A DNA stretch of 64,000 bases from Escherichia coli (GTDB taxonomy: Bacteria > Pseudomonadota > Gammaproteobacteria > Enterobacterales > Enterobacteriaceae). The position numbers and the translations under genes are program-made. The stretch lies in assembly GCF_003018255.1 (NCBI RefSeq), contig NZ_CP027440.1; one strand, written 5' to 3'. The stretch's first letter is position 1. Every line of letters begins with the position of its first letter. The notes beneath the pieces are model-generated. The model did not search any database. It had not been told where the DNA came from and was given only the letters and a program-made list of their open reading frames with translations. Positions 7,479 through 58,841 of this stretch are shown here, one piece after another.

Positions 7479-8831
7479 TTAATGTGCTTTTTTAAGCTCT
7501 GCGATGCAGTCGGCAAAATTTGGCAACCATTTCTCGTGCGCCAGAATCATCTCGCGTGCCAGCAGCTCAGCATCGCGATCGGAATGCACCAACGGACTAA
7601 GGTTTAGGGCCAGTAACACATCGTTAAACTCTCCGCTAAGTGCGGCGTTGCTGGCAGCAATCTCGAAGCCTTTAATGGTGTGAATCAGCCCCATCACTTT
7701 ATCATCGAAATGCGTAATGCGCGGATGTGGCGTCGCGCCATCGCGCCCCAGCGTACAGGTCATTTCTACCGCCCAGTCTGCCGGAATATTATCAATATGC
7801 CCATGATGCGGGATATTAACGTAATGTTCAGCTTGCTTGTCGTTGTAGATAGCGTTGATCACTTCGCACGCTGCATCAGAGTAATAAGCCCCACCGCGCT
7901 GTTCCAGTTCTTTCGGCTTAACTTTCAACTCCGGGTTTTTATATAGCTCAAAAAGTTGTTTCTCGACTTTCTGTACTACCTGCGCTCGTGCGCCGCCTTT
8001 GTAGTATTCGCCCATTTCAATAGCCAGCATCTCTTTTTGCTTGAAGTAATAAAGCAAATAAGAACACGGCAACAGATTCATAGAACGAATTAAGCCTTCG
8101 CTAAATGGCAGATCGAAAATATTTTTAACGCCAGATGCTTTTAACTGCCCGGATGCCACACCATCAAGCAATTCGGCAAAGCGTGATTTGCCATTTACCA
8201 GCACATCCTTAATGAACACCATATGGTTGAGGCCGAACAGATCGATAGATAAATCATCGCTGTCTTTCAGCATCAGAACATCGCGAATAAACATCTTCAT
8301 GCCGATCGGAATATTACACACGCCGATAAAGCGTTTAAATCCGGTATGACGATAAACGGCTTCAGTGACCATTCCCGCCGGGTTAGTGAAGTTAATCACC
8401 CATGCATTCGGACATAGTTCTTCGACATCTTTTACGATGTCAAAAATCACCGGAATGGTACGCAGACCTTTAAACAGACCGCCCGCACCGTTAGTTTCCT
8501 GACCAAGATAACCATGACTTAATGGAATACGTTCATCCAGTTCGCGCGCCGGTAATTGGCCAACGCGCAGTTGGGTAGTAACGAAATCAGCATCTTTCAA
8601 TGCTTCGCGGCGATCCAGCGTTTTATAAAGCTTCATCGGGACGCCAGCGTTATCAATCATCCGTTGGCAGAGATCAAAAATAATATCCAGTTTCGCTTTA
8701 CCACCTTCGACATCCACCAGCCATAATTCGCTGACCGGCAATTCGTGATAACGCTTAATAAATCCTTCCAGTAACTCCGGGGTATAGCTGCTCCCGCCAC
8801 CAATAGTGACGACTTTTAATTTCTGGCTCAT
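7479..8831 (-). CDS. chbF: 6-phospho-beta-glucosidase (GH4 family, NAD/Mn-dependent) ChbF
   Basis: ORF 7479-8900; start placed at ATG 8831 (MSQKLKVVTIGGGSSYTPEL, NAD-binding fold) with RBS gggag upstream; 450 aa. Confidence 0.9.
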   Translation of the reverse strand: MSQKLKVVTIGGGSSYTPELLEGFIKRYHELPVSELWLVDVEGGKAKLDIIFDLCQRMIDNAGVPMKLYKTLDRREALKDADFVTTQLRVGQLPARELDERIPLSHGYLGQETNGAGGLFKGLRTIPVIFDIVKDVEELCPNAWVINFTNPAGMVTEAVYRHTGFKRFIGVCNIPIGMKMFIRDVLMLKDSDDLSIDLFGLNHMVFIKDVLVNGKSRFAELLDGVASGQLKASGVKNIFDLPFSEGLIRSMNLLPCSYLLYYFKQKEMLAIEMGEYYKGGARAQVVQKVEKQLFELYKNPELKVKPKELEQRGGAYYSDAACEVINAIYNDKQAEHYVNIPHHGHIDNIPADWAVEMTCTLGRDGATPHPRITHFDDKVMGLIHTIKGFEIAASNAALSGEFNDVLLALNLSPLVHSDRDAELLAREMILAHEKWLPNFADCIAELKKAH

Positions 8832-8934
8832 AATTTCTCCCTTCAGTACAGAATTCTGATATCTGGCATATCTGCCCCCCGGACATAAATAATCCAGCAA
8901 CAGGACAGATATGTGAATTGTCAGGTATAACGAC

Positions 8935-9777
8935 TTACTGATTAAATTCAGTCAATTTCTTACGATAGCTCTTAGGCGTAAAGGATGTTAATTTCTTAAA
9001 CGTTTTAATAAACAAGCTCGGGCTACTATAACCGGCCTCAAACGCAATATCCGTCACTGAATAGTTGGTCATTTCCAGTTGTTTTTTGGCAAAATTAATA
9101 CGGATTTCATTAATAATCTGCATTGGCGTTTTACCATAGTATCGTTGAGTCGCTCGCGTCAAATATTCCTGTGATTTGGCTGACAACGTCACCATATTCT
9201 CCAGCGCCGATTCACTAAACTGCTCTTTATCATGCATCTTTTCTACCGTACTTTTCAGCCACTGCGGTATATCATCAATCACCTGTTCTTCGCGGTAATG
9301 ACGTAAACGGTTAATGACATAAAAAGTAACCATCTCAACAAACTCTTCCAGCCCTGTTTCGCGGAAATTCAATGAAGAAATCACTGTTTCCACATAGGTG
9401 AGAAAAGCGTTATTGGTCCGGTATACCTGCGAAGCGACAAAGCAATAAGGCAACAACGGCAGGTAATGCTGCTCAAAAAAGCGTTTACTGATCCCAACGT
9501 TCAATATACGCGTGGCACCAAATTCATAAAAACTTTGATGGTGCGAACCTAACGGAATAAAAACAAAATCGCCCCGTTCCAGTAACACGCGCTTACCGTT
9601 AATCTCCTGGAAATAACGCCCGGTTAATACCAGAGTAAATTCATAATAGTCGTGCTGATGCAGTCCGCTGATACTCTCAGTTTTATTGTAGATAAACACA
9701 TGGAAATTTTTGCCATTAAACAACTGCTGTTCTCGGGCAGTGGCAATTTCCAGCGCGTTAATCACTGGCTGCATCAT
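8935..9777 (-). CDS. chbR: AraC-family dual regulator of the chb operon ChbR
   Basis: 280-aa ORF with C-terminal AraC-type HTH. Confidence 0.9.
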
Positions 9778-48943: not shown

Positions 48944-49043
48944 CAACCCTGGCCCGGTACACATGCTACCGGGCCTACAACGACAGCGAACCGTGGGCCA
49001 GAGAAGCGGCAACACAGGCGTAGCATAAAGTTGGCAAATGTAG

Positions 49044-50339
<1,296 letters not shown>

Positions 50340-50485
50340 AACTGTCAGCCGGGTCATTATCGCCTGGCTGATTTTTAGTTCACTGTAAATTATCTCATTT
50401 ATTACATACATTAGCTTACAATCGCTTTAAATATGACAGCATAACCTTTACACAATTTAGTTCCAGAAAACAATCATTCGGAAAA

Positions 50486-51961
50486 ATGATTCGGTCAACA
50501 CGTATTTCCCTGGGGTTATTCTTTAATTATTTTTTATCGTTAACGAAAATTGATCCTGGTCAAAACTATATATCTCTGCCATCAATAAAATCCAGCACTC
50601 ACATTGCTCTCCTTTTTATGGCTTCTATGGGTACACAAAAATTAAAAGCTCAAGGCTTTTTTATTTTCAGCTTATTGCTGACGTTAATTTTATTTTGCAT
50701 TACTACCTTATATAACGAAAACACGAATGTAAAACTCATCCCACAGATGAATTACCTGATGGTTGTTGTGGCTTTGTTTTTCCTTAACGCCGTCATTTTC
50801 CTTTTCATGTTAATGAAGTATTTCACTAACAAACAAATTTTACCAACACTCATTTTAAGCCTTGCATTTTTAAGTGGCCTTATCTATTTAGTTGAAACCA
50901 TTGTAATTATCCATAAACCAATCAACGGCAGTACACTGATCCAGACAAAGTCGAATGATGTTTCTATTTTCTATATTTTCCGCCAACTCAGTTTCATTTG
51001 TTTAACCTCGCTGGCGCTCTTTTGTTATGGGAAAGACAACATCCTTGACAACAATAAGAAGAAAACTGGCATTCTGTTGCTGGCGCTGATTCCTTTTTTA
51101 GTTTTTCCCCTTCTGGCACACAATCTGAGCAGTTATAACGCTGACTATTCTTTGTATGTCGTCGATTACTGTCCGGACAACCATACTGCGACCTGGGGAA
51201 TCAACTATACAAAAATATTGGTTTGTTTGTGGGCATTTTTACTGTTCTTTATTATCATGCGTACACGATTAGCCAGCGAACTATGGCCGTTAATAGCATT
51301 ATTATGTCTGGCATCGCTATGCTGCAACTTACTTCTACTGACTCTGGATGAGTATAATTACACCATCTGGTATATCAGTCGCGGGATTGAAGTTTCCAGT
51401 AAACTGTTTGTTGTGTCTTTTCTGATTTATAACATTTTTCAGGAACTGCAACTCTCCAGCAAACTGGCAGTTCATGATGTACTGACCAATATTTATAATC
51501 GGCGCTACTTTTTCAACAGCGTAGAGTCATTATTGTCGCGACCTGTTGTTAAGGACTTTTGTGTCATGCTGGTTGATATTAATCAGTTCAAACGCATCAA
51601 TGCCCAATGGGGACATCGTGTGGGTGATAAAGTGCTGGTATCAATTGTCGATATTATCCAGCAAAGCATCCGCCCCGATGATATTTTAGCGCGACTGGAG
51701 GGTGAGGTGTTTGGCTTGCTATTTACCGAACTCAATAGTGCCCAGGCAAAAATCATTGCGGAACGTATGCGTAAAAATGTCGAACTCCTGACCGGCTTTA
51801 GTAACAGATATGATGTTCCTGAGCAAATGACCATCAGTATTGGCACGGTTTTTTCAACGGGTGACACACGTAATATCTCGCTTGTCATGACGGAAGCAGA
51901 TCAAGCCTTACGCGAAGCGAAAAGCGAGGGGGGCAACAAAGTGATTATTCATCATATTTAA
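50486..51961 (+). CDS. yeaI: membrane-bound degenerate GGDEF protein (EGEVF variant) YeaI/CdgI
   Basis: 491-aa ORF; N-terminal multi-TM domain, C-terminal GGDEF fold with RLEGEVFGL in place of GGDEF; AT-rich. Confidence 0.85.
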   Translation: MIRSTRISLGLFFNYFLSLTKIDPGQNYISLPSIKSSTHIALLFMASMGTQKLKAQGFFIFSLLLTLILFCITTLYNENTNVKLIPQMNYLMVVVALFFLNAVIFLFMLMKYFTNKQILPTLILSLAFLSGLIYLVETIVIIHKPINGSTLIQTKSNDVSIFYIFRQLSFICLTSLALFCYGKDNILDNNKKKTGILLLALIPFLVFPLLAHNLSSYNADYSLYVVDYCPDNHTATWGINYTKILVCLWAFLLFFIIMRTRLASELWPLIALLCLASLCCNLLLLTLDEYNYTIWYISRGIEVSSKLFVVSFLIYNIFQELQLSSKLAVHDVLTNIYNRRYFFNSVESLLSRPVVKDFCVMLVDINQFKRINAQWGHRVGDKVLVSIVDIIQQSIRPDDILARLEGEVFGLLFTELNSAQAKIIAERMRKNVELLTGFSNRYDVPEQMTISIGTVFSTGDTRNISLVMTEADQALREAKSEGGNKVIIHHI

Positions 51962-52141
51962 GTGCAAAAATATTCAGAGCCATGCTTTTTGCGTGGCTTT
52001 TGCATACAATTTATTACTATTACCCCTAAATTTCCCCTCCCCAGCGGCGCAGAGATGAGTATAATTAGCGCCCCTGTGCCAGGCCGCAATCGAACTTTAT
52101 CTGGTTTTCTCGTTTCACTAACCGAAGGAGTGCCATTTATC

Positions 52142-53632
52142 ATGAAATTGCACCATAGAATGCTCCGGCATTTTATCGCCGCAAGTGTCATTGTGCTGAC
52201 ATCTTCCTTCCTTATTTTTGAACTTGTCGCCAGCGACAGAGCAATGAGTGCCTATCTGCGCTATATCGTGCAGAGAGCAGACTCCTCCTTTCTTTATGAT
52301 AAGTATCAGAATCAGAGTATTGCCGCGCATGTGATGCGCGCTCTCGCTGCTGAGCAGTCGGAAGTGTCGCCAGAACAGCGGCGCGCCATCTGCGAGGCTT
52401 TTGAGTCTGCCAATAATACCCATGGCTTAAACCTGACTGCCCATAAATACCCGGACTTACGCGGCACACTACAAACCGCATCCACTGACTGCGACACAAT
52501 TGTGGAAGCTGCAGCACTATTACCCGCTTTTGATCAGGCAGTGGAAAGCAACCGCCACCAGGATGATTACGGTTCAGGTCTTGGGATGGCCGAAGAGAAA
52601 TTTCACTATTATCTCGATCTCAATGACCGCTATGTCTATTTTTATGAGCCGGTTAATGTTGAGTACTTTGCGATGAATAACTGGTCTTTCCTGCAGTCAG
52701 GAAGTATTGGCATCGATCGCAAAGATATTGAAAAGGTATTTACCGGGCGTACCGTTTTATCGAGCATTTACCAGGATCAGCGTACTAAACAGAACGTGAT
52801 GAGTTTGCTGACGCCGGTATATGTCGCAGGGCAGCTAAAAGGGATTGTGCTGCTGGATATTAACAAAAACAATCTGCGGAATATCTTTTACACTCATGAC
52901 CGCCCTCTCCTCTGGCGTTTTCTCAATGTCACGCTAACCGATACCGATTCGGGGCGCGACATTATCATCAACCAGAGCGAAGATAATCTGTTCCAGTATG
53001 TCAGTTACGTCCATGACTTACCGGGCGGCATTCGTGTCTCGTTATCCATTGATATTCTTTACTTTATCACGTCTTCGTGGAAAAGCGTTCTGTTCTGGAT
53101 TTTGACGGCGTTAATTTTGCTGAATATGGTGCGGATGCACTTCCGTTTATACCAAAACGTGTCGCGAGAAAATATTAGTGATGCGATGACTGGACTGTAT
53201 AATCGCAAAATTTTAACCCCTGAACTGGAGCAGCGGTTGCAGAAGCTGGTGCAATCCGGTTCTTCGGTGATGTTTATTGCAATTGACATGGACAAGTTAA
53301 AGCAAATAAATGACACCCTCGGTCATCAGGAGGGGGATTTAGCGATTACGTTATTAGCTCAGGCGATTAAACAATCGATTCGTAAAAGTGATTATGCCAT
53401 CCGACTCGGTGGCGATGAATTCTGCATCATTCTTGTCGATTCGACGCCGCAAATTGCAGCACAACTGCCTGAACGTATCGAAAAACGTCTGCAACATATC
53501 GCGCCGCAGAAAGAGATCGGCTTCTCTTCCGGTATTTACGCGATGAAAGAAAACGATACGTTACATGATGCGTATAAAGCTTCCGATGAGCGTTTATATG
53601 TCAATAAGCAGAACAAAAACAGCCGTTCATGA
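52142..53632 (+). CDS. yeaJ: membrane-anchored diguanylate cyclase YeaJ/DgcJ
   Basis: ORF 51962-53632; start at ATG 52142 with RBS aaggag; intact RLGGDEF motif; 496 aa. Confidence 0.85.
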   Translation: MKLHHRMLRHFIAASVIVLTSSFLIFELVASDRAMSAYLRYIVQRADSSFLYDKYQNQSIAAHVMRALAAEQSEVSPEQRRAICEAFESANNTHGLNLTAHKYPDLRGTLQTASTDCDTIVEAAALLPAFDQAVESNRHQDDYGSGLGMAEEKFHYYLDLNDRYVYFYEPVNVEYFAMNNWSFLQSGSIGIDRKDIEKVFTGRTVLSSIYQDQRTKQNVMSLLTPVYVAGQLKGIVLLDINKNNLRNIFYTHDRPLLWRFLNVTLTDTDSGRDIIINQSEDNLFQYVSYVHDLPGGIRVSLSIDILYFITSSWKSVLFWILTALILLNMVRMHFRLYQNVSRENISDAMTGLYNRKILTPELEQRLQKLVQSGSSVMFIAIDMDKLKQINDTLGHQEGDLAITLLAQAIKQSIRKSDYAIRLGGDEFCIILVDSTPQIAAQLPERIEKRLQHIAPQKEIGFSSGIYAMKENDTLHDAYKASDERLYVNKQNKNSRS

Positions 53633-53674
53633 TAACCTTCTGTGGTTGTTTGCTTGTAATCTCAGGAGCATGAA

Positions 53675-54178
53675 ATGACTGAAATGGCTAAAGGAAGCGT
53701 GACGCATCAGCGGTTAATCGCTTTATTATCACAAGAAGGTGCTGACTTCCGCGTCGTTACCCATGAAGCGGTAGGTAAATGTGAAGCGGTGTCAGAAATT
53801 CGTGGCACCGCTTTAGGCCAGGGGGCTAAGGCACTGGTATGTAAAGTCAAAGGCAATGGTGTAAATCAACATGTTCTGGCGATCCTCGCGGCCGATCAAC
53901 AGGCCGATCTGAGCCAACTCGCCAGCCATATAGGCGGATTACGCGCTTCGTTGGCCAGCCCGGCGGAAGTCGATGAACTCACAGGCTGTGTCTTCGGCGC
54001 GATCCCCCCTTTCAGCTTCCATCCAAAACTCAAACTGGTTGCCGATCCCCTACTCTTCGAACGATTTGATGAAATCGCCTTCAATGCAGGCATGCTGGAT
54101 AAATCCGTTATTTTGAAAACCGCGGATTATTTGCGCATTGCGCAACCAGAACTGGTCAATTTCCGCCGCACTGCGTAA
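53675..54178 (+). CDS. yeaK: YbaK/ProX-family aminoacyl-tRNA deacylase YeaK
   Basis: 167-aa ORF. Confidence 0.8.
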   Translation: MTEMAKGSVTHQRLIALLSQEGADFRVVTHEAVGKCEAVSEIRGTALGQGAKALVCKVKGNGVNQHVLAILAADQQADLSQLASHIGGLRASLASPAEVDELTGCVFGAIPPFSFHPKLKLVADPLLFERFDEIAFNAGMLDKSVILKTADYLRIAQPELVNFRRTA

Positions 54179-54283
54179 CTAGCCTGTCCGTTCGATAAGA
54201 AGAACGGACAAAACCAGCACAACAGCAATGGCAAAAAACGATGACGTGATAATCAGTGTCTCGACGAACATTTGATCGTTCAT
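54179..54283 (-). CDS. yoaI: 34-aa small membrane protein YoaI
   Basis: Read by hand on minus strand: ATG AAC GAT CAA ATG TTC GTC GAG ... TAG = [34 protein letters not shown]; not in ORF track (below 60 aa). Confidence 0.75.
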
Positions 54284-54452
54284 AGTATGCCCCCGGGAGA
54301 TAGTTGTTTTCACGTTATTGTTAGCGTGCGCAAATGGCAGTTTGATGACAGTTCGCCTGATTTTTTATGCAAAAAACGTAAAGATTTTCTACTTCCTTCC
54401 TGCAGCAAGCGTAAAGTAAGCAGGCTTATTATTCTTTGGCAAGGAAACCACG

Positions 54453-54899
54453 ATGTTTGATGTCACTTTGCTGATCCTGCTCGGGTTAGCTGCGCTGGGC
54501 TTTATCAGTCATAACACCACTGTCGCCGTTTCAATTCTGGTGTTAATCATTGTCCGCGTCACACCGTTAAGCACCTTTTTCCCGTGGATTGAAAAACAGG
54601 GGCTAAGTATCGGGATAATCATTCTGACGATTGGCGTTATGGCTCCCATCGCCAGCGGGACGCTACCGCCCTCAACCCTGATTCACTCGTTTCTGAACTG
54701 GAAATCGCTGGTGGCAATTGCAGTCGGCGTTATTGTCTCCTGGCTGGGGGGGCGCGGCGTGACGTTAATGGGCAGCCAGCCGCAACTGGTCGCCGGGCTG
54801 CTGGTGGGCACTGTTTTGGGCGTGGCGCTGTTTCGCGGCGTACCGGTTGGCCCGCTTATTGCCGCGGGTCTGGTTTCGCTGATTGTGGGGAAACAGTAG
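54453..54899 (+). CDS. yeaL: DUF441 inner membrane protein YeaL
   Basis: 148-aa hydrophobic ORF. Confidence 0.8.
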
Positions 54900-55677
54900 T
54901 TAATCCCGCAATATATCGGCCTGGCGTTTGCCCCAGGCCTTTCTTAAACATAGTAATAAAGGCCGTTGTTGAATCATACCCCAGCGTATGAGCAACTTTC
55001 TGTACAGTATCGCCTTTCACTAATCCCTGAAGCGCCATAATCAGCTGTAACTGCTGACGCCACTGGCGAAAACTCACCCCCGTCTCTTTCACTATCAGTC
55101 GGGCAAGATTGCGTTCACTCATCGCAAAAAAGCGAGCCCATTGCCCCAATGACCCCCACTCGACGGGCTCTTTCGCCATCATCTCCACCATCGCGCGGAT
55201 TTTAGGATGAGAAGAAACGGGTAGGTGCAGCTGTTGTTGTGGCTGCTGAGGGAGTTCATCAAACAGGACCTGAATTAATCTGCGGGTCATCGGCTCAGCA
55301 CGCTGAGTCGTCGTCCTGTTTGCCAGGGTTAAAATTAATTCCCGGCATAAGGGCGATATTTTCAATGTGCAACAGGTTGTCGGCATTGTCACTGCGCTGG
55401 GTTCGATAAACAGAAAACAGAGTTCAGCGTTAGCTGTCACTTGATTGCTATGTTCCACCCCTCCCGGTATCCAAACCGCATATTGTGGCGGCACCATCCA
55501 CAAAGCATTTTCCACCGTACAGGTAATTGCACCATGTAGTGCCAGTATCAACTGTCCTTTGCGGTGCTGATGTACAGGACTGGTTAACTCATCCGTTCCG
55601 GCGTGAATACAAAATGCGACCGCGGCTTCATGGTGTCGGTCGGGTTCATAGCCATTGAGATTCAACCTGTGCATCAT
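54856..55677 (-). CDS. yeaM: AraC-family transcriptional regulator YeaM/NimR
   Basis: 273-aa ORF with cupin N-domain and AraC HTH; 3' end overlaps yeaL by 44 bp. Confidence 0.85.
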
Positions 55678-55773
55678 TTTGTCCGAATTTAGCGATAATT
55701 TGTCATTTTAGCTTGATTCAACATAACAATAAAAACGGTAAGGTACAGCCTCGTTTGTAACAATGAGAAGCAT

Positions 55774-56955
55774 ATGACCTGTTCAACTTCATTAAGCGGC
55801 AAAAACAGGATTGTCCTTATCGCTGGCATTCTGATGATTGCCACAACATTACGCGTCACCTTTACCGGCGCAGCACCGTTACTGGATACGATTCGTTCCG
55901 CTTACTCGCTGACGACGGCGCAAACCGGCTTATTGACCACCCTGCCATTATTAGCCTTTGCGCTAATCTCACCTTTGGCTGCCCCGGTGGCGCGACGTTT
56001 TGGTATGGAACGTAGCCTGTTTGCCGCGTTACTTTTGATCTGTGCTGGTATCGCAATTCGCTCTCTCCCTTCGCCTTACTTATTATTTGGCGGTACAGCG
56101 GTCATTGGCGGTGGGATTGCATTAGGCAATGTCTTACTGCCAGGATTAATTAAACGCGATTTCCCTCATTCCGTCGCCAGACTTACCGGCGCATATTCCC
56201 TGACAATGGGAGCTGCAGCGGCACTGGGATCGACTATGGTCGTGCCGCTGGCTTTGAACGGTTTTGGCTGGCAAGGCGCGTTGCTCATGCTGATGTCTTT
56301 TCCTCTGCTGGCTCTTTTTTTATGGCTGCCACAGTGGCGAAGTCAACAACATGCAAATTTGAGTACCTCACGCGCCTTACATACTCGGGGTATCTGGCGT
56401 TCGCCGCTTGCCTGGCAGGTAACATTGTTTCTTGGGATCAACTCACTGGTCTATTACGTGATTATTGGCTGGCTTCCGGCGATTCTCATCAGTCACGGCT
56501 ATAGCGAAGCACAGGCGGGTTCACTGCATGGTTTGCTGCAACTAGCCACAGCAGCTCCCGGTTTGCTGATCCCACTTTTCTTACATCATGTGAAAGATCA
56601 GCGTGGTATTGCAGCGTTCGTTGCCTTGATGTGCGCAGTGGCCGCGGTTGGGCTCTGCTTTATGCCAGCACACGCGATCACCTGGACTCTGCTTTTCGGT
56701 TTTGGTTCCGGCGCAACAATGATACTGGGGTTGACGTTCATTGGTCTGCGGGCAAGTTCTGCGCATCAGGCGGCGGCACTCTCGGGGATGGCACAATCCG
56801 TCGGGTATTTGCTGGCAGCCTGTGGGCCGCCGCTGATGGGTAAAATACACGATGCTAACGGTGACTGGTCCGTACCACTGATGGGTGTTGCAATACTTTC
56901 ACTACTGATGGCGATTTTCGGACTTTGCGCCGGGAGAGACAAAGAAATTCGCTAA
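55774..56955 (+). CDS. yeaN: MFS transporter YeaN/NimT
   Basis: 393-aa 12-TM-like ORF divergent from yeaM. Confidence 0.85.
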   Translation: MTCSTSLSGKNRIVLIAGILMIATTLRVTFTGAAPLLDTIRSAYSLTTAQTGLLTTLPLLAFALISPLAAPVARRFGMERSLFAALLLICAGIAIRSLPSPYLLFGGTAVIGGGIALGNVLLPGLIKRDFPHSVARLTGAYSLTMGAAAALGSTMVVPLALNGFGWQGALLMLMSFPLLALFLWLPQWRSQQHANLSTSRALHTRGIWRSPLAWQVTLFLGINSLVYYVIIGWLPAILISHGYSEAQAGSLHGLLQLATAAPGLLIPLFLHHVKDQRGIAAFVALMCAVAAVGLCFMPAHAITWTLLFGFGSGATMILGLTFIGLRASSAHQAAALSGMAQSVGYLLAACGPPLMGKIHDANGDWSVPLMGVAILSLLMAIFGLCAGRDKEIR

Positions 56956-57815: not shown

Positions 57816-58841
57816 GTGTCAGATCAGATTATCGCCCGCGTCTCGCAATCCCTTGCCAAAGAACAGTCACTGGAAAGCCTGGTCCGACAGCTTCTGGAGA
57901 TGCTGGAAATGGTCACTGATATGGAATCAACCTACCTGACCAAAGTGGATGTCGAAGCGCGCCTGCAGCATATAATGTTTGCCCGTAACAGCCAGAAAAT
58001 GCACATCCCGGAGAATTTTACCGTCTCGTGGGATTACTCGTTATGCAAACGCGCCATTGATGAAAACTGCTTTTTCAGCGATGAAGTCCCTGACCGTTGG
58101 GGCGACTGTATTGCGGCACGCAATCTTGGCATCACCACATTTCTGAGCACGCCAATTCACTTACCGGATGGATCATTCTATGGCACGCTTTGCGCCGCCA
58201 GCAGTGAGAAGCGCCAGTGGAGTGAACGCGCGGAACAGGTTTTACAGTTATTCGCCGGACTGATTGCACAATATATTCAAAAAGAGGCACTGGTTGAGCA
58301 GCTGCGCGAAGCCAATGCTGCGCTGATTGCGCAATCGTATACCGACTCGTTAACCGGGCTACCGAATCGGCGGGCGATTTTTGAAAATCTGACGACGCTG
58401 TTTTCTCTCGCCCGACATCTTAACCATAAGATAATGATCGCGTTTATCGATCTGGATAACTTCAAATTAATCAACGATCGTTTTGGTCATAATAGTGGTG
58501 ATTTGTTCCTCATTCAGGTTGGCGAGCGCCTTAATACGCTCCAGCAAAATGGCGAAGTTATTGGTCGTCTCGGCGGTGATGAGTTTTTGGTTGTTTCACT
58601 GAACAACGAGAATGCGGATATTTCGTCTCTGCGAGAACGTATTCAACAGCAAATACGTGGAGAATATCACTTAGGTGACGTTGATTTGTATTATCCCGGT
58701 GCCAGTCTTGGCATAGTAGAAGTCGATCCTGAAACGACCGATGCAGACAGTGCCCTGCATGCTGCCGATATCGCGATGTATCAGGAGAAAAAACACAAAC
58801 AGAAAACACCTTTTGTCGCGCATCCAGCGCTACATTCCTGA
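57816..58841 (+). CDS. yeaP: GAF-GGDEF diguanylate cyclase YeaP/DgcP
   Basis: ORF 57687-58841; start placed at GTG 57816 (VSDQIIARV...) with RBS ggag 8 nt upstream; intact RLGGDEF; 341 aa. Confidence 0.8.
   Translation: MSDQIIARVSQSLAKEQSLESLVRQLLEMLEMVTDMESTYLTKVDVEARLQHIMFARNSQKMHIPENFTVSWDYSLCKRAIDENCFFSDEVPDRWGDCIAARNLGITTFLSTPIHLPDGSFYGTLCAASSEKRQWSERAEQVLQLFAGLIAQYIQKEALVEQLREANAALIAQSYTDSLTGLPNRRAIFENLTTLFSLARHLNHKIMIAFIDLDNFKLINDRFGHNSGDLFLIQVGERLNTLQQNGEVIGRLGGDEFLVVSLNNENADISSLRERIQQQIRGEYHLGDVDLYYPGASLGIVEVDPETTDADSALHAADIAMYQEKKHKQKTPFVAHPALHS

Follow-up and report, generated by a model that had tools for sequence, protein, structure and literature searches.

CdgI of Escherichia coli as a likely c-di-GMP receptor: probable loss of the GGDEF catalytic motif in place and a candidate FNR promoter inside the annotated 5' end

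PopA of Caulobacter and PelD of Pseudomonas have lost the A-site and bind c-di-GMP at a retained RxxD I-site. Among the MASE4-GGDEF proteins of Escherichia coli, DgcT (YcdT) and DgcX are active cyclases, and CdgI (YeaI, b1785 in strain K-12), which has the same architecture, has been called a catalytically inactive member of this family (PMC10459773). The purified GGDEF domain of CdgI binds c-di-GMP in vitro (Sarenko 2017, Fig. S4B); in the same study, expression of CdgI was undetectable in laboratory culture, its overexpression was toxic, and contacts between GGDEF domains were reported.

We analyzed a window of 64,000 nucleotides from an E. coli chromosome; at 100% identity, this window matches the chromosome of a strain with RefSeq-annotated cdgI, dgcJ, and dgcP, and the coordinates of the three open reading frames agree with those of RefSeq (Table 1). 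The region consists of three previously characterized E. coli c-di-GMP genes. An earlier note on this DNA had singled out positions 50486 to 53632, which span two of them, cdgI and dgcJ, and hence include the 180-bp spacer in between; this spacer probably carries a separate promoter for dgcJ, and a sigma70 ChIP-seq peak (1869996; Myers 2013) falls within it, at approximately window position 52073. The hairpin of the yeaGH terminator ahead of cdgI is at -18.3 kcal/mol (z = -4.6), with a stem that is kept in 12 orthologous loci. K-12 CdgI is the product of the same gene, as judged by the same neighbors, the EGEVF and RPDD motifs, and the sequence of the FNR box. CdgI of the window shares 98% identity with the main E. 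coli cluster across all 491 aa and is approximately 99% identical to K-12 CdgI over residues 45 to 491; only strain-level substitutions separate it from the latter, 4 in the 47 N-terminal residues and about 3 in the other 444. Three of the approximately 19 GGDEF genes lie inside 8.4 kb, a clustering to which simulation assigns a chance probability of about 0.009. A local tandem duplication of the three was considered and rejected, as their GGDEF domains share 28 to 31% identity, a level no higher than the 34 to 40% seen with unrelated bacterial GGDEF domains. The same identities speak against the sub-functionalization among neighbors that the earlier note had proposed, and the closest paralog of CdgI is DgcT, encoded at a distant locus. 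Overall, we regard it as very probable that, of these three known genes, cdgI has lost catalysis in place, that its product is likely a receptor, and that an FNR promoter most likely lies inside its annotated 5' end.

Table 1. Features of the cdgI-dgcJ-dgcP region, in window coordinates
Feature	Position	Strand	Basis or remark
Intrinsic terminator of the yeaGH operon; parts yeaH from cdgI	50344..50372	+	Terminator scan
First 47 annotated cdgI codons; most likely promoter and leader, not coding	50486..50626	+	
FNR box (putative), TTGATCCTGGTCAA	50550..50563	+	9/10 positions of TTGAT-N4-ATCAA
-10 hexamer (putative), TAAAAT	50586..50591	+	TAGAAT in other species
cdgI (yeaI) CDS from conserved start, 444 aa	50627..51961	+	Annotated CDS is 50486-51961, 491 aa
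MASE4 integral-membrane sensor domain, CdgI	50747..51442	+	PF17158, E = 1.6e-48, aa 88-319 (491-aa numbering)
Degenerate GGDEF domain, CdgI	51467..51940	+	PF00990; full-length alignment to solved GGDEF (cyclase) domains
CdgI I-site RPDD (51671-51682), then degenerate A-site EGEVF (51698-51712)	51671..51712	+	
cdgI-dgcJ spacer	51962..52141	+	Promoter-like match 52114-52143
dgcJ (yeaJ), periplasmic GAPES1 sensor and GGDEF domain	52142..53632	+	Annotation, Pfam, motifs
dgcP (yeaP), GAF and GGDEF domains	57816..58841	+	Annotation, Pfam, motifs

The earlier note described yeaI as AT-rich compared with its neighbors, and the composition is indeed atypical: cdgI has a GC of 0.39 and a GC3 of 0.44 versus window ORF means of 0.511 and 0.542, the lowest values of both among the 47 long ORFs of the window (z = -3.1 for GC, -2.1 for GC3), and the GC profile drops to 0.33 at 50500 to 51000. 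Approximately two-thirds of this AT-richness lies in the amino acid composition and one-third in synonymous choice. The H-NS ChIP signal proposed as a check is already on record and positive over cdgI; H-NS ChIP-chip regions of Myers 2013 (Table S3) correspond to approximately window positions 49693 to 52513 (anaerobic) and 49018 to 56099 (aerobic), and the cdgI site is H-NS bound in all of the ChIP studies compared by Panyukov & Ozoline (2013).

With such a composition, synonymous AT bias included, and such H-NS occupancy, cdgI could be xenogeneic, an AT-rich MASE4-GGDEF gene inserted between yeaH and dgcJ and silenced by H-NS since, although we hold this to be possible rather than probable, and the event would necessarily be ancient. 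The composition methods of Nakamura and of Lawrence and Ochman predict cdgI to be foreign, whereas the phylogeny-based set of Price does not flag it. The paralog dgcT, as AT-rich as cdgI, adjoins an IS3; at the cdgI site, however, no mobility gene, integrase, tRNA, or IS is annotated anywhere between mipA and dmlA. The yeaH/dgcJ junction is variable across the Enterobacteriaceae, being empty in Citrobacter amalonaticus, C. sedlakii, and Kluyvera genomosp. 1, filled with other cargo in C. koseri, the Klebsiella oxytoca group, and other Kluyvera, and represented by an AT-rich 661-bp gap in Salmonella arizonae; yet cdgI is a core gene of E. coli, found in 5,389 of 5,426 complete genomes, and the order yeaG-yeaH-[MASE4-GGDEF]-dgcJ-yeaK is kept across all Escherichia examined and three Citrobacter-like genomes. 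Synonymous divergence of cdgI (dS, 0.56 to 1.03) is the same as that of the flanking genes (0.57 to 1.10), and the identity of CdgI to its Citrobacter counterparts is comparable to that of the adjacent DgcJ (63%). The low GC is common to all cdgI orthologs and to dgcT (GC, 0.386), and since it drifts toward the host value in no lineage, it looks maintained rather than like the fading signal of an import. When the yeaH-dgcJ gaps of Salmonella, C. koseri, Klebsiella, and Kluyvera were searched for cdgI remnants, tblastn with 11 family proteins gave no match (E <= 1), and blastn of the Salmonella gap returned chance-level matches only.

Among the features of a recent genomic island, atypical composition was thus found, and patchy presence, discordant divergence, and border mobility genes were not. 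Recent horizontal acquisition of yeaI, as the earlier note suggested, does not fit a core, syntenic gene with the dS of its flanks and no annotated mobility genes nearby, and the overall proposal of horizontal acquisition and sub-functionalization is mostly not supported. We favor the reading in which the catalytic motif of cdgI decayed where the gene stands; the AT-richness of the gene is a stable family trait that goes along with its being covered by H-NS and silent in laboratory culture.

All three proteins contain a GGDEF domain (PF00990; E = 4.8e-45 for CdgI, 3.3e-40 for DgcJ, and 5.6e-41 for DgcP), which is combined with MASE4 in CdgI, with GAPES1 in DgcJ, and with GAF in DgcP; the MASE4 match (PF17158) scores 165.7 bits against a curated cutoff of 28.4. 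An intact GG(D/E)EF A-site is present in DgcJ and DgcP and absent from CdgI. The RLGGDEF that the earlier note had read in yeaJ is located in the DgcJ stretch RKSDYAIRLGGDEF (aa 414 to 427, nt 53381 to 53422), where RxxD and GGDEF are both intact; the motif is found also in DgcP, which was correctly named as a third intact GGDEF protein, with ORF, Pfam, and motif in agreement, and whose GGDEF (aa 253 to 257, nt 58572 to 58586) is without RxxD. Judged by domain content and intact motifs, dgcJ and dgcP appear to encode diguanylate cyclases of the ordinary sensor type. In CdgI, the A-site position of the GGDEF domain is taken by the degenerate RLEGEVF, as noted earlier, and the motif stretch RPDDILARLEGEVF (aa 396 to 409) places RxxD five residues ahead of the A-site (RPDD-ILARL-EGEVF, with EGEVF at aa 405 to 409); R396 and D399 are invariant among the 17 family members aligned. 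The K-N-D-H-D-R signature of CdgI is also incomplete, with Ala in RINAQWGH replacing the Asp of active family members, and the table of Spurbeck gives the same KNAHDR. In the family alignment, this change from Asp to Ala or Asn is restricted to the degenerate clade, in which the A-site reads EGEVF, EGEEF, DGEVF, EGDVF, EGNVF, or EGKRF; GGEEF is found outside this Escherichia-side clade. Because the A-site is lost, through the change from GGEEF to EGEVF together with Asp-to-Ala in the K-N-D signature, CdgI most likely makes no c-di-GMP. The suggestion that yeaI encodes a sensor or effector instead of a cyclase agrees with the degenerate A-site, the intact RxxD, and the c-di-GMP binding already published for the purified domain (Sarenko 2017), although the reading is not new; a literature search for the string "EGEVF" returned no match.

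It is very improbable that CdgI remains a functional diguanylate cyclase in spite of EGEVF. Secondary citations credit YeaI with an increase of c-di-GMP in BW25113 in vivo (Sanchez-Torres 2011) and name it among "verified" DGCs, whereas Sarenko 2017 and PMC10459773 regard it as catalytically inactive, and no in vitro cyclase assay of CdgI was found in the literature. In CFT073, the cyclase WspR complemented the biofilm defect of a yeaI mutant when the medium was no-salt LB but failed to do so in glycerol medium. Most GTP-binding residues are retained in CdgI, including D364, K369, N372, and D381, but one more conserved Asp is missing, every Escherichia-side ortholog has another residue in place of the first motif Gly, and motif positions 3 and 4 drift freely among these orthologs, which is unexpected for an active site.

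An ortholog with an intact GGEEF occupies the same site in some Citrobacter, which argues that the catalytic motif of CdgI decayed in place. The ancestor would have been an active-type MASE4-GGEEF gene, which some Citrobacter still carry at the yeaH-dgcJ junction; its catalytic motif was probably lost in situ within the Escherichia lineage, after which cdgI would have been vertically inherited and maintained by purifying selection. In comparisons with three other Escherichia species or clades, dN/dS is 0.07 to 0.11 in the GGDEF part, and it is 0.07 to 0.10 when both domains are considered; as judged from these sequence comparisons, the degenerate GGDEF domain is held by purifying selection. 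That cdgI is a silent, decaying pseudogene is extremely improbable and is rejected on this dN/dS, sustained in both domains across approximately 0.6 to 1.0 synonymous substitutions per site; its silence in laboratory culture, truncated alleles, of which the protein database has many (345 aa, n = 639; 295 aa, n = 249; 281 aa, n = 934 members), and a spontaneous cdgI-dgcJ' deletion on record in the literature stand against an invariant I-site, conserved promoter elements, and a full-length cluster of 10,877 members.

The true start of cdgI is probably ATG 50627, which is kept unchanged in 12 of 12 orthologs, unlike ATG 50618 and ATG 50486. Beyond the main E. coli clade, CdgI homologs have lengths of 443 to 448 aa. 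In the 47-codon extension, substitutions are even over the codon positions and dN/dS is approximately 1, versus 0.09 to 0.10 in the gene body. E69-type E. coli and E. albertii have this frame closed, as do two metagenomic orthologs and the Citrobacter-like loci. Counting against this start, no obvious Shine-Dalgarno sequence precedes ATG 50627. In several Escherichia clades, the upstream frame is open for 85 codons, and a further sigma70 peak lies near window position 50406 (Myers 2013), so that a long CdgI isoform could arise from an upstream promoter. The short leader (50598 to 50626) contains no GGA motif as a CsrA site; the sole nearby GGA, at 50480 to 50482, is directly ahead of the nonconserved ATG 50486.

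The extension contains a candidate FNR-type promoter. Of the 14 columns of the FNR box, 10 show no variation among the 12 orthologs, and the consensus is perfect in the Citrobacter-like loci and in P0018; around the -10 element (50580 to 50591), 9 of 12 columns are invariant. Together, the two elements have 19 invariant columns out of 26, whereas the rest of the upstream region has 16 out of 228 (p = 8e-14). The box center is 29.5 bp from the first base of the -10 element, which fits class II geometry, and we infer a transcription start near 50598. The window holds six FNR-box matches where 3.0 are expected, so a match in a single window is not above chance, and the case for the box therefore relies on conservation and on published ChIP: Myers 2013 (Tables S5/S6) lists an FNR peak in both ChIP-seq and ChIP-chip at exactly this box sequence, labeled "within yeaI," and an anaerobic sigma70 ChIP-seq peak of the same study (1868507) corresponds to approximately window position 50584. 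The yeaI peak was grouped there with those lacking an FNR-dependent expression change in glucose minimal medium (Table S9), and the site was marked free of nucleoid proteins (Table S6), yet the H-NS region of Table S3 spans it. Within cdgI, AppY and sigma70 peaks also fall close to window positions 51330 to 51374.

Transcription of cdgI would thus most likely begin within the annotated 5' end of the ORF, at a conserved class II promoter of the FNR type, yielding a 444-aa protein whose expression may require anaerobiosis as well as H-NS and CsrA derepression. The more specific account, comprising a buried class II FNR promoter, a 444-aa CdgI that acts as an anaerobic-specific receptor, a wrong database start, a motif lost once, and Citrobacter orthologs that are cyclases, is plausible, but as a whole it falls a little short of what we would call probable. 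If true, an anaerobic FNR promoter would explain why CdgI has gone unseen in aerobic laboratory culture.

The observation of an AT-rich yeaI with a degenerate GGDEF is correct but concerns already known textbook E. coli K-12 genes, and it adds little by itself because the degenerate motif, the c-di-GMP binding, the H-NS coverage, and the "foreign" composition flag are all published. Three by-products may be of modest use: a probable start codon misannotation in a reference genome gene; the pairing of a deeply conserved promoter with an FNR ChIP peak that had been published but left uninterpreted, which hints at the condition under which CdgI is expressed; and syntenic Citrobacter GGEEF orthologs that date the loss of catalysis and give a clean experimental comparison. 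If this holds, the natural pair of active and inactive orthologs could show what a GGDEF enzyme becomes once it is no longer an enzyme.

Considered as a whole, CdgI is an inner membrane MASE4 sensor joined to a GGDEF domain from which the catalytic A-site is gone and in which the RxxD inhibitory site is kept; it more likely binds c-di-GMP, as the published in vitro data show, and probably serves as a receptor or regulator, with pairing to the GGDEF domains of other proteins as one route put forward in the literature. CdgI and DgcT are 37% identical over their full length and 46% identical in the GGDEF domain, and both have the RPDD I-site and are AT-rich; DgcT, however, keeps GGEEF intact along with the conserved Asp, and its locus is elsewhere, beside pgaABCD. 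The MASE4-GGEEF gene of Citrobacter sp. Awk 4 and NCU1 is a positional ortholog with the same flanking genes (57 to 61% identical), and resembles cdgI in its GC (0.37 to 0.38) and in the FNR box and -10 element upstream. Unlike CdgI, its product retains both GGEEF and the conserved Asp and, on these residues, is presumably still a cyclase. With PopA and PelD, CdgI shares the working principle, its own c-di-GMP binding being that of Sarenko 2017, whereas their partner domains (receiver domains or GAF) are unrelated to MASE4, and common descent is evident for the GGDEF fold only.

Over 50300-53700, the window matches E. coli strain JNE23-011 at 100% identity and K-12-type genomes at 98.6%, and the RefSeq gene order of the neighborhood is yeaG-yeaH-cdgI-dgcJ-yeaK-yoaI-yeaL-nimR-nimT-yeaO-yoaF-dgcP. 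An earlier note had described a degenerate EGEVF motif in yeaI (cdgI) and intact GGDEF motifs in yeaJ (dgcJ) and yeaP (dgcP). An ORF check reproduced its coordinates for all three genes and the motifs read as described, the sole correction to its range being the dgcJ start at 52142, which leaves a 180-bp spacer after cdgI. Upon alignment to solved cyclase domains, EGEVF of CdgI superposes exactly on the catalytic GGEEF (A-site), and RPDD on the inhibitory RxxD (I-site). In E. albertii loci (L005/L006; compare window 54856-56955), nimR-nimT is absent between yeaL and yeaO, and the Citrobacter-like loci (Citrobacter sp. Awk 4, Citrobacter sp. NCU1, and a third contig) carry an additional GATase gene after nimT.

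Features of the cdgI-dgcP region in window coordinates
Feature	Position	Description
sigma70 peak	near 50406	
Promoter-like match	50447-50474	
ATCATTCGGAAAAA block	50473-50486	
cdgI (yeaI)	50486-51961	MASE4 + GGDEF (Pfam)
FNR box TTGATC-N3-(A/G)TCAA	50550-50563	conserved, 12 orthologs
CAT(C/T)AATA(A/G)AAT block	TAAAAT (-10) at 50586-50591	conserved, 12 orthologs
ATG	50627	invariant, 12 orthologs
Promoter-like match, minus strand	51378-51351	
FNR-like match TTGATATTAATCAG	51573-51586	1 mismatch; VDINQ codons of GGDEF domain
RPDD-ILARL-EGEVF	51671-51712	CdgI motif
dgcJ (yeaJ)	52142-53632	GAPES1 + GGDEF (Pfam)
RKSD-YAIRL-GGDEF	53381-53422	DgcJ motif
dgcP (yeaP)	57816-58841	GAF + GGDEF (Pfam)
GGDEF	58572-58586	DgcP motif

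The AT-richness of yeaI relative to its neighbors was borne out. Among the 47 non-overlapping ORFs of the window (at least 150 aa), cdgI has both the lowest GC (0.39; mean, 0.511; z = -3.1) and the lowest GC3 (0.44; mean, 0.542; z = -2.1), with a GC minimum of 0.33 at 50500-51000, and dgcJ is mildly low (GC 0.46). Re-coding the CdgI amino acids with the usual codon usage of the window gave a predicted GC of 0.433 and GC3 of 0.543, indicating that about two-thirds of the GC deficit comes from a Phe/Ile/Leu/Asn/Lys-rich composition and one-third from a genuine synonymous AT preference. Orthologs in E. albertii and the Citrobacter-like loci (GC 0.37-0.38, GC3 0.42-0.45; their neighbors, 0.50-0.68) and the distant MASE4-GGDEF paralog dgcT (GC 0.386) are equally AT-rich, so this is an old, stable trait. 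The ORFs next lowest in GC lie at 7479-9777 on the minus strand; their products are an AraC-type regulator (GC 0.41) and a glycosyl hydrolase of family 4, and the genes are probably chbR and chbF.

Horizontal acquisition of yeaI, as proposed in the earlier note, is largely unsupported. Of 5426 complete E. coli genomes, 5424 contain the region and 5389 contain at least 80% of it. All Escherichia examined, the two metagenomic forms, and the three Citrobacter-like loci, whose motif is GGEEF, share the order yeaG-yeaH-[MASE4-GGDEF]-dgcJ-yeaK. Synonymous divergence of cdgI (0.56-1.03) matches that of its flanks (0.57-1.10), protein identity to Citrobacter is close for CdgI (57-61%) and DgcJ (63%), and the annotation holds no mobility genes near cdgI; together, these observations exclude a recent import and indicate that the motif was lost in place. 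Composition-based methods have long flagged yeaI as foreign, but a phylogeny-based set does not. An ancient insertion at the yeaH-dgcJ junction is possible, because a gap survey (loci L012-L030) showed that junction content varies across Enterobacteriaceae genera and species: C. amalonaticus, C. sedlakii, and Kluyvera genomosp. 1 have nothing there, C. koseri has a methyltransferase, the Klebsiella oxytoca group a glycosyltransferase-like gene, and other Kluyvera either LysR plus LysE genes or an ABC transporter, and in Salmonella arizonae the junction is an AT-rich gap of 661 bp, in which tblastn with family proteins and blastn detected no cdgI remnant. Locus L025, a 429-bp contig of the Clostridia assembly Terrisporobacter mayombei DSM 6539 with 99% identity to E. 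coli dgcJ, is almost certainly contamination. Three GGDEF genes within 8.4 kb are unlikely by chance (p ~0.009, simulation), but the GGDEF domains of CdgI, DgcJ, and DgcP share only 28-31% identity and that of CdgI is nearer DgcT (46%); the cluster thus does not consist of local duplicates, and the proposed sub-functionalisation likewise finds little support.

CdgI has few full-length relatives. They comprise E. coli (98% identity), E. albertii together with the cryptic Escherichia clades (86-89%), two metagenomic forms (77% and 64%), the Citrobacter-like proteins (57-61%), and a further set (39-46%), past which only generic GGDEF-domain matches were found. R396 and D399 of the I-site (R396xxD399) do not vary among the 17 aligned relatives. 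The A-site is GGEEF in Citrobacter-like and more distant relatives and degenerate in all eight Escherichia-side sequences (EGEVF, EGEEF, DGEVF, EGDVF, EGNVF, and EGKRF), seven of which also lack the second conserved Asp (RIND to RINA/N; homolog P0009 retains RIND), a loss seen in no GGEEF-bearing sequence. Such a combination would be expected if catalysis had been abandoned while the I-site was still needed. Comparison of cdgI with E. albertii, E. whittamii, and Escherichia sp. E1V33 gave dN/dS values of 0.07-0.10, with no difference between the membrane and GGDEF halves, which rules out decay of the gene. Truncated alleles of 281-345 aa occur in many E. coli genomes, in clusters with hundreds of members, and there are also rare CdgI-DgcJ fusions (both among P0013, P0019, P0023, P0026, and P0034), suggesting recurrent disruption or deletion of the locus.

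The first 47 annotated codons (50486-50626) have substitutions spread evenly over codon positions (e.g., 6/8/4) and a dN/dS of ~1, compared with 37/19/112 and 0.09 in the gene body. Their frame does not stay open in E69-type E. coli, E. albertii, the two metagenomic forms, or the Citrobacter-like loci. By these substitution patterns, this segment evolves like non-coding DNA, and, given the conserved ATG, the reference 491-aa model is probably ~47 residues too long. A long isoform made from an upstream promoter is possible in view of the sigma70 peak near 50406 and promoter-like match (50447-50474).

The same segment contains a conserved putative FNR promoter. In the yeaH-cdgI spacers of 12 orthologs, nearly nothing between the conserved yeaH terminator hairpin and cdgI is invariant beyond the FNR box, the -10 block, and the ATG (19 of 26 columns in the two promoter blocks versus 16 of 228 elsewhere upstream; p = 8e-14). 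The FNR box is a perfect consensus in the Citrobacter-like loci and homolog P0018, and 29.5 bp separate its center from the first base of the hexamer at -10, a class II geometry that would place the transcription start near 50598; both elements fall inside the annotated ORF. With K-12 coordinates anchored at the FNR box (1868473 = window 50550), an FNR ChIP peak (1868480), higher in an hns/stpA mutant, and an anaerobic sigma70 peak (1868507, ~50584) coincide with these elements, and the box sequence is tabulated among the predicted sites with bound FNR, labeled "within yeaI" (Myers 2013). These peaks were published in supplementary tables only and never tied to cdgI function. As no FNR-dependent expression change was recorded in glucose minimal medium (Myers 2013 Table S9), promoter function stays inferred. 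The second FNR-like match is probably coincidental. The ATCATTCGGAAAAA block may serve as a site for a regulator or for CsrA; it is largely kept across the Escherichia and Citrobacter-like loci, unlike the ATG after it.

H-NS ChIP signal at yeaI, also raised in the earlier note, is already positive in print: bound regions map to ~49693-52513 anaerobically and ~49018-56099 aerobically (Myers 2013 Table S3), and a "promoter island" within yeaI (~50611-50915) was bound in all ChIP studies compared (Panyukov and Ozoline). Other reported inputs are CsrA, RstA, AppY, and SrsR. At ~51330-51380, within cdgI, lie a sigma70 peak that is strongly anaerobic (1869297; occupancy 15.6 to 408), an AppY ChIP summit (1871229 in U00096.3), and the minus-strand promoter-like match; they could mark an internal or antisense promoter.

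Against the published reading, second-hand citations attribute a c-di-GMP increase in vivo to YeaI; WspR rescued a CFT073 yeaI mutant in no-salt LB and failed to do so in glycerol medium. The view of yeaI as a c-di-GMP sensor or effector rather than a cyclase is right and already published, and with the observation itself confirmed, what is new comes down to the probably misplaced start codon, the conserved FNR promoter, and the Citrobacter orthologs with an intact motif. [quoted passage not shown] 2017), in line with its description as a catalytically inactive member of the YcdT/DgcX/YeaI MASE4 family (2023 paper, PMC10459773).
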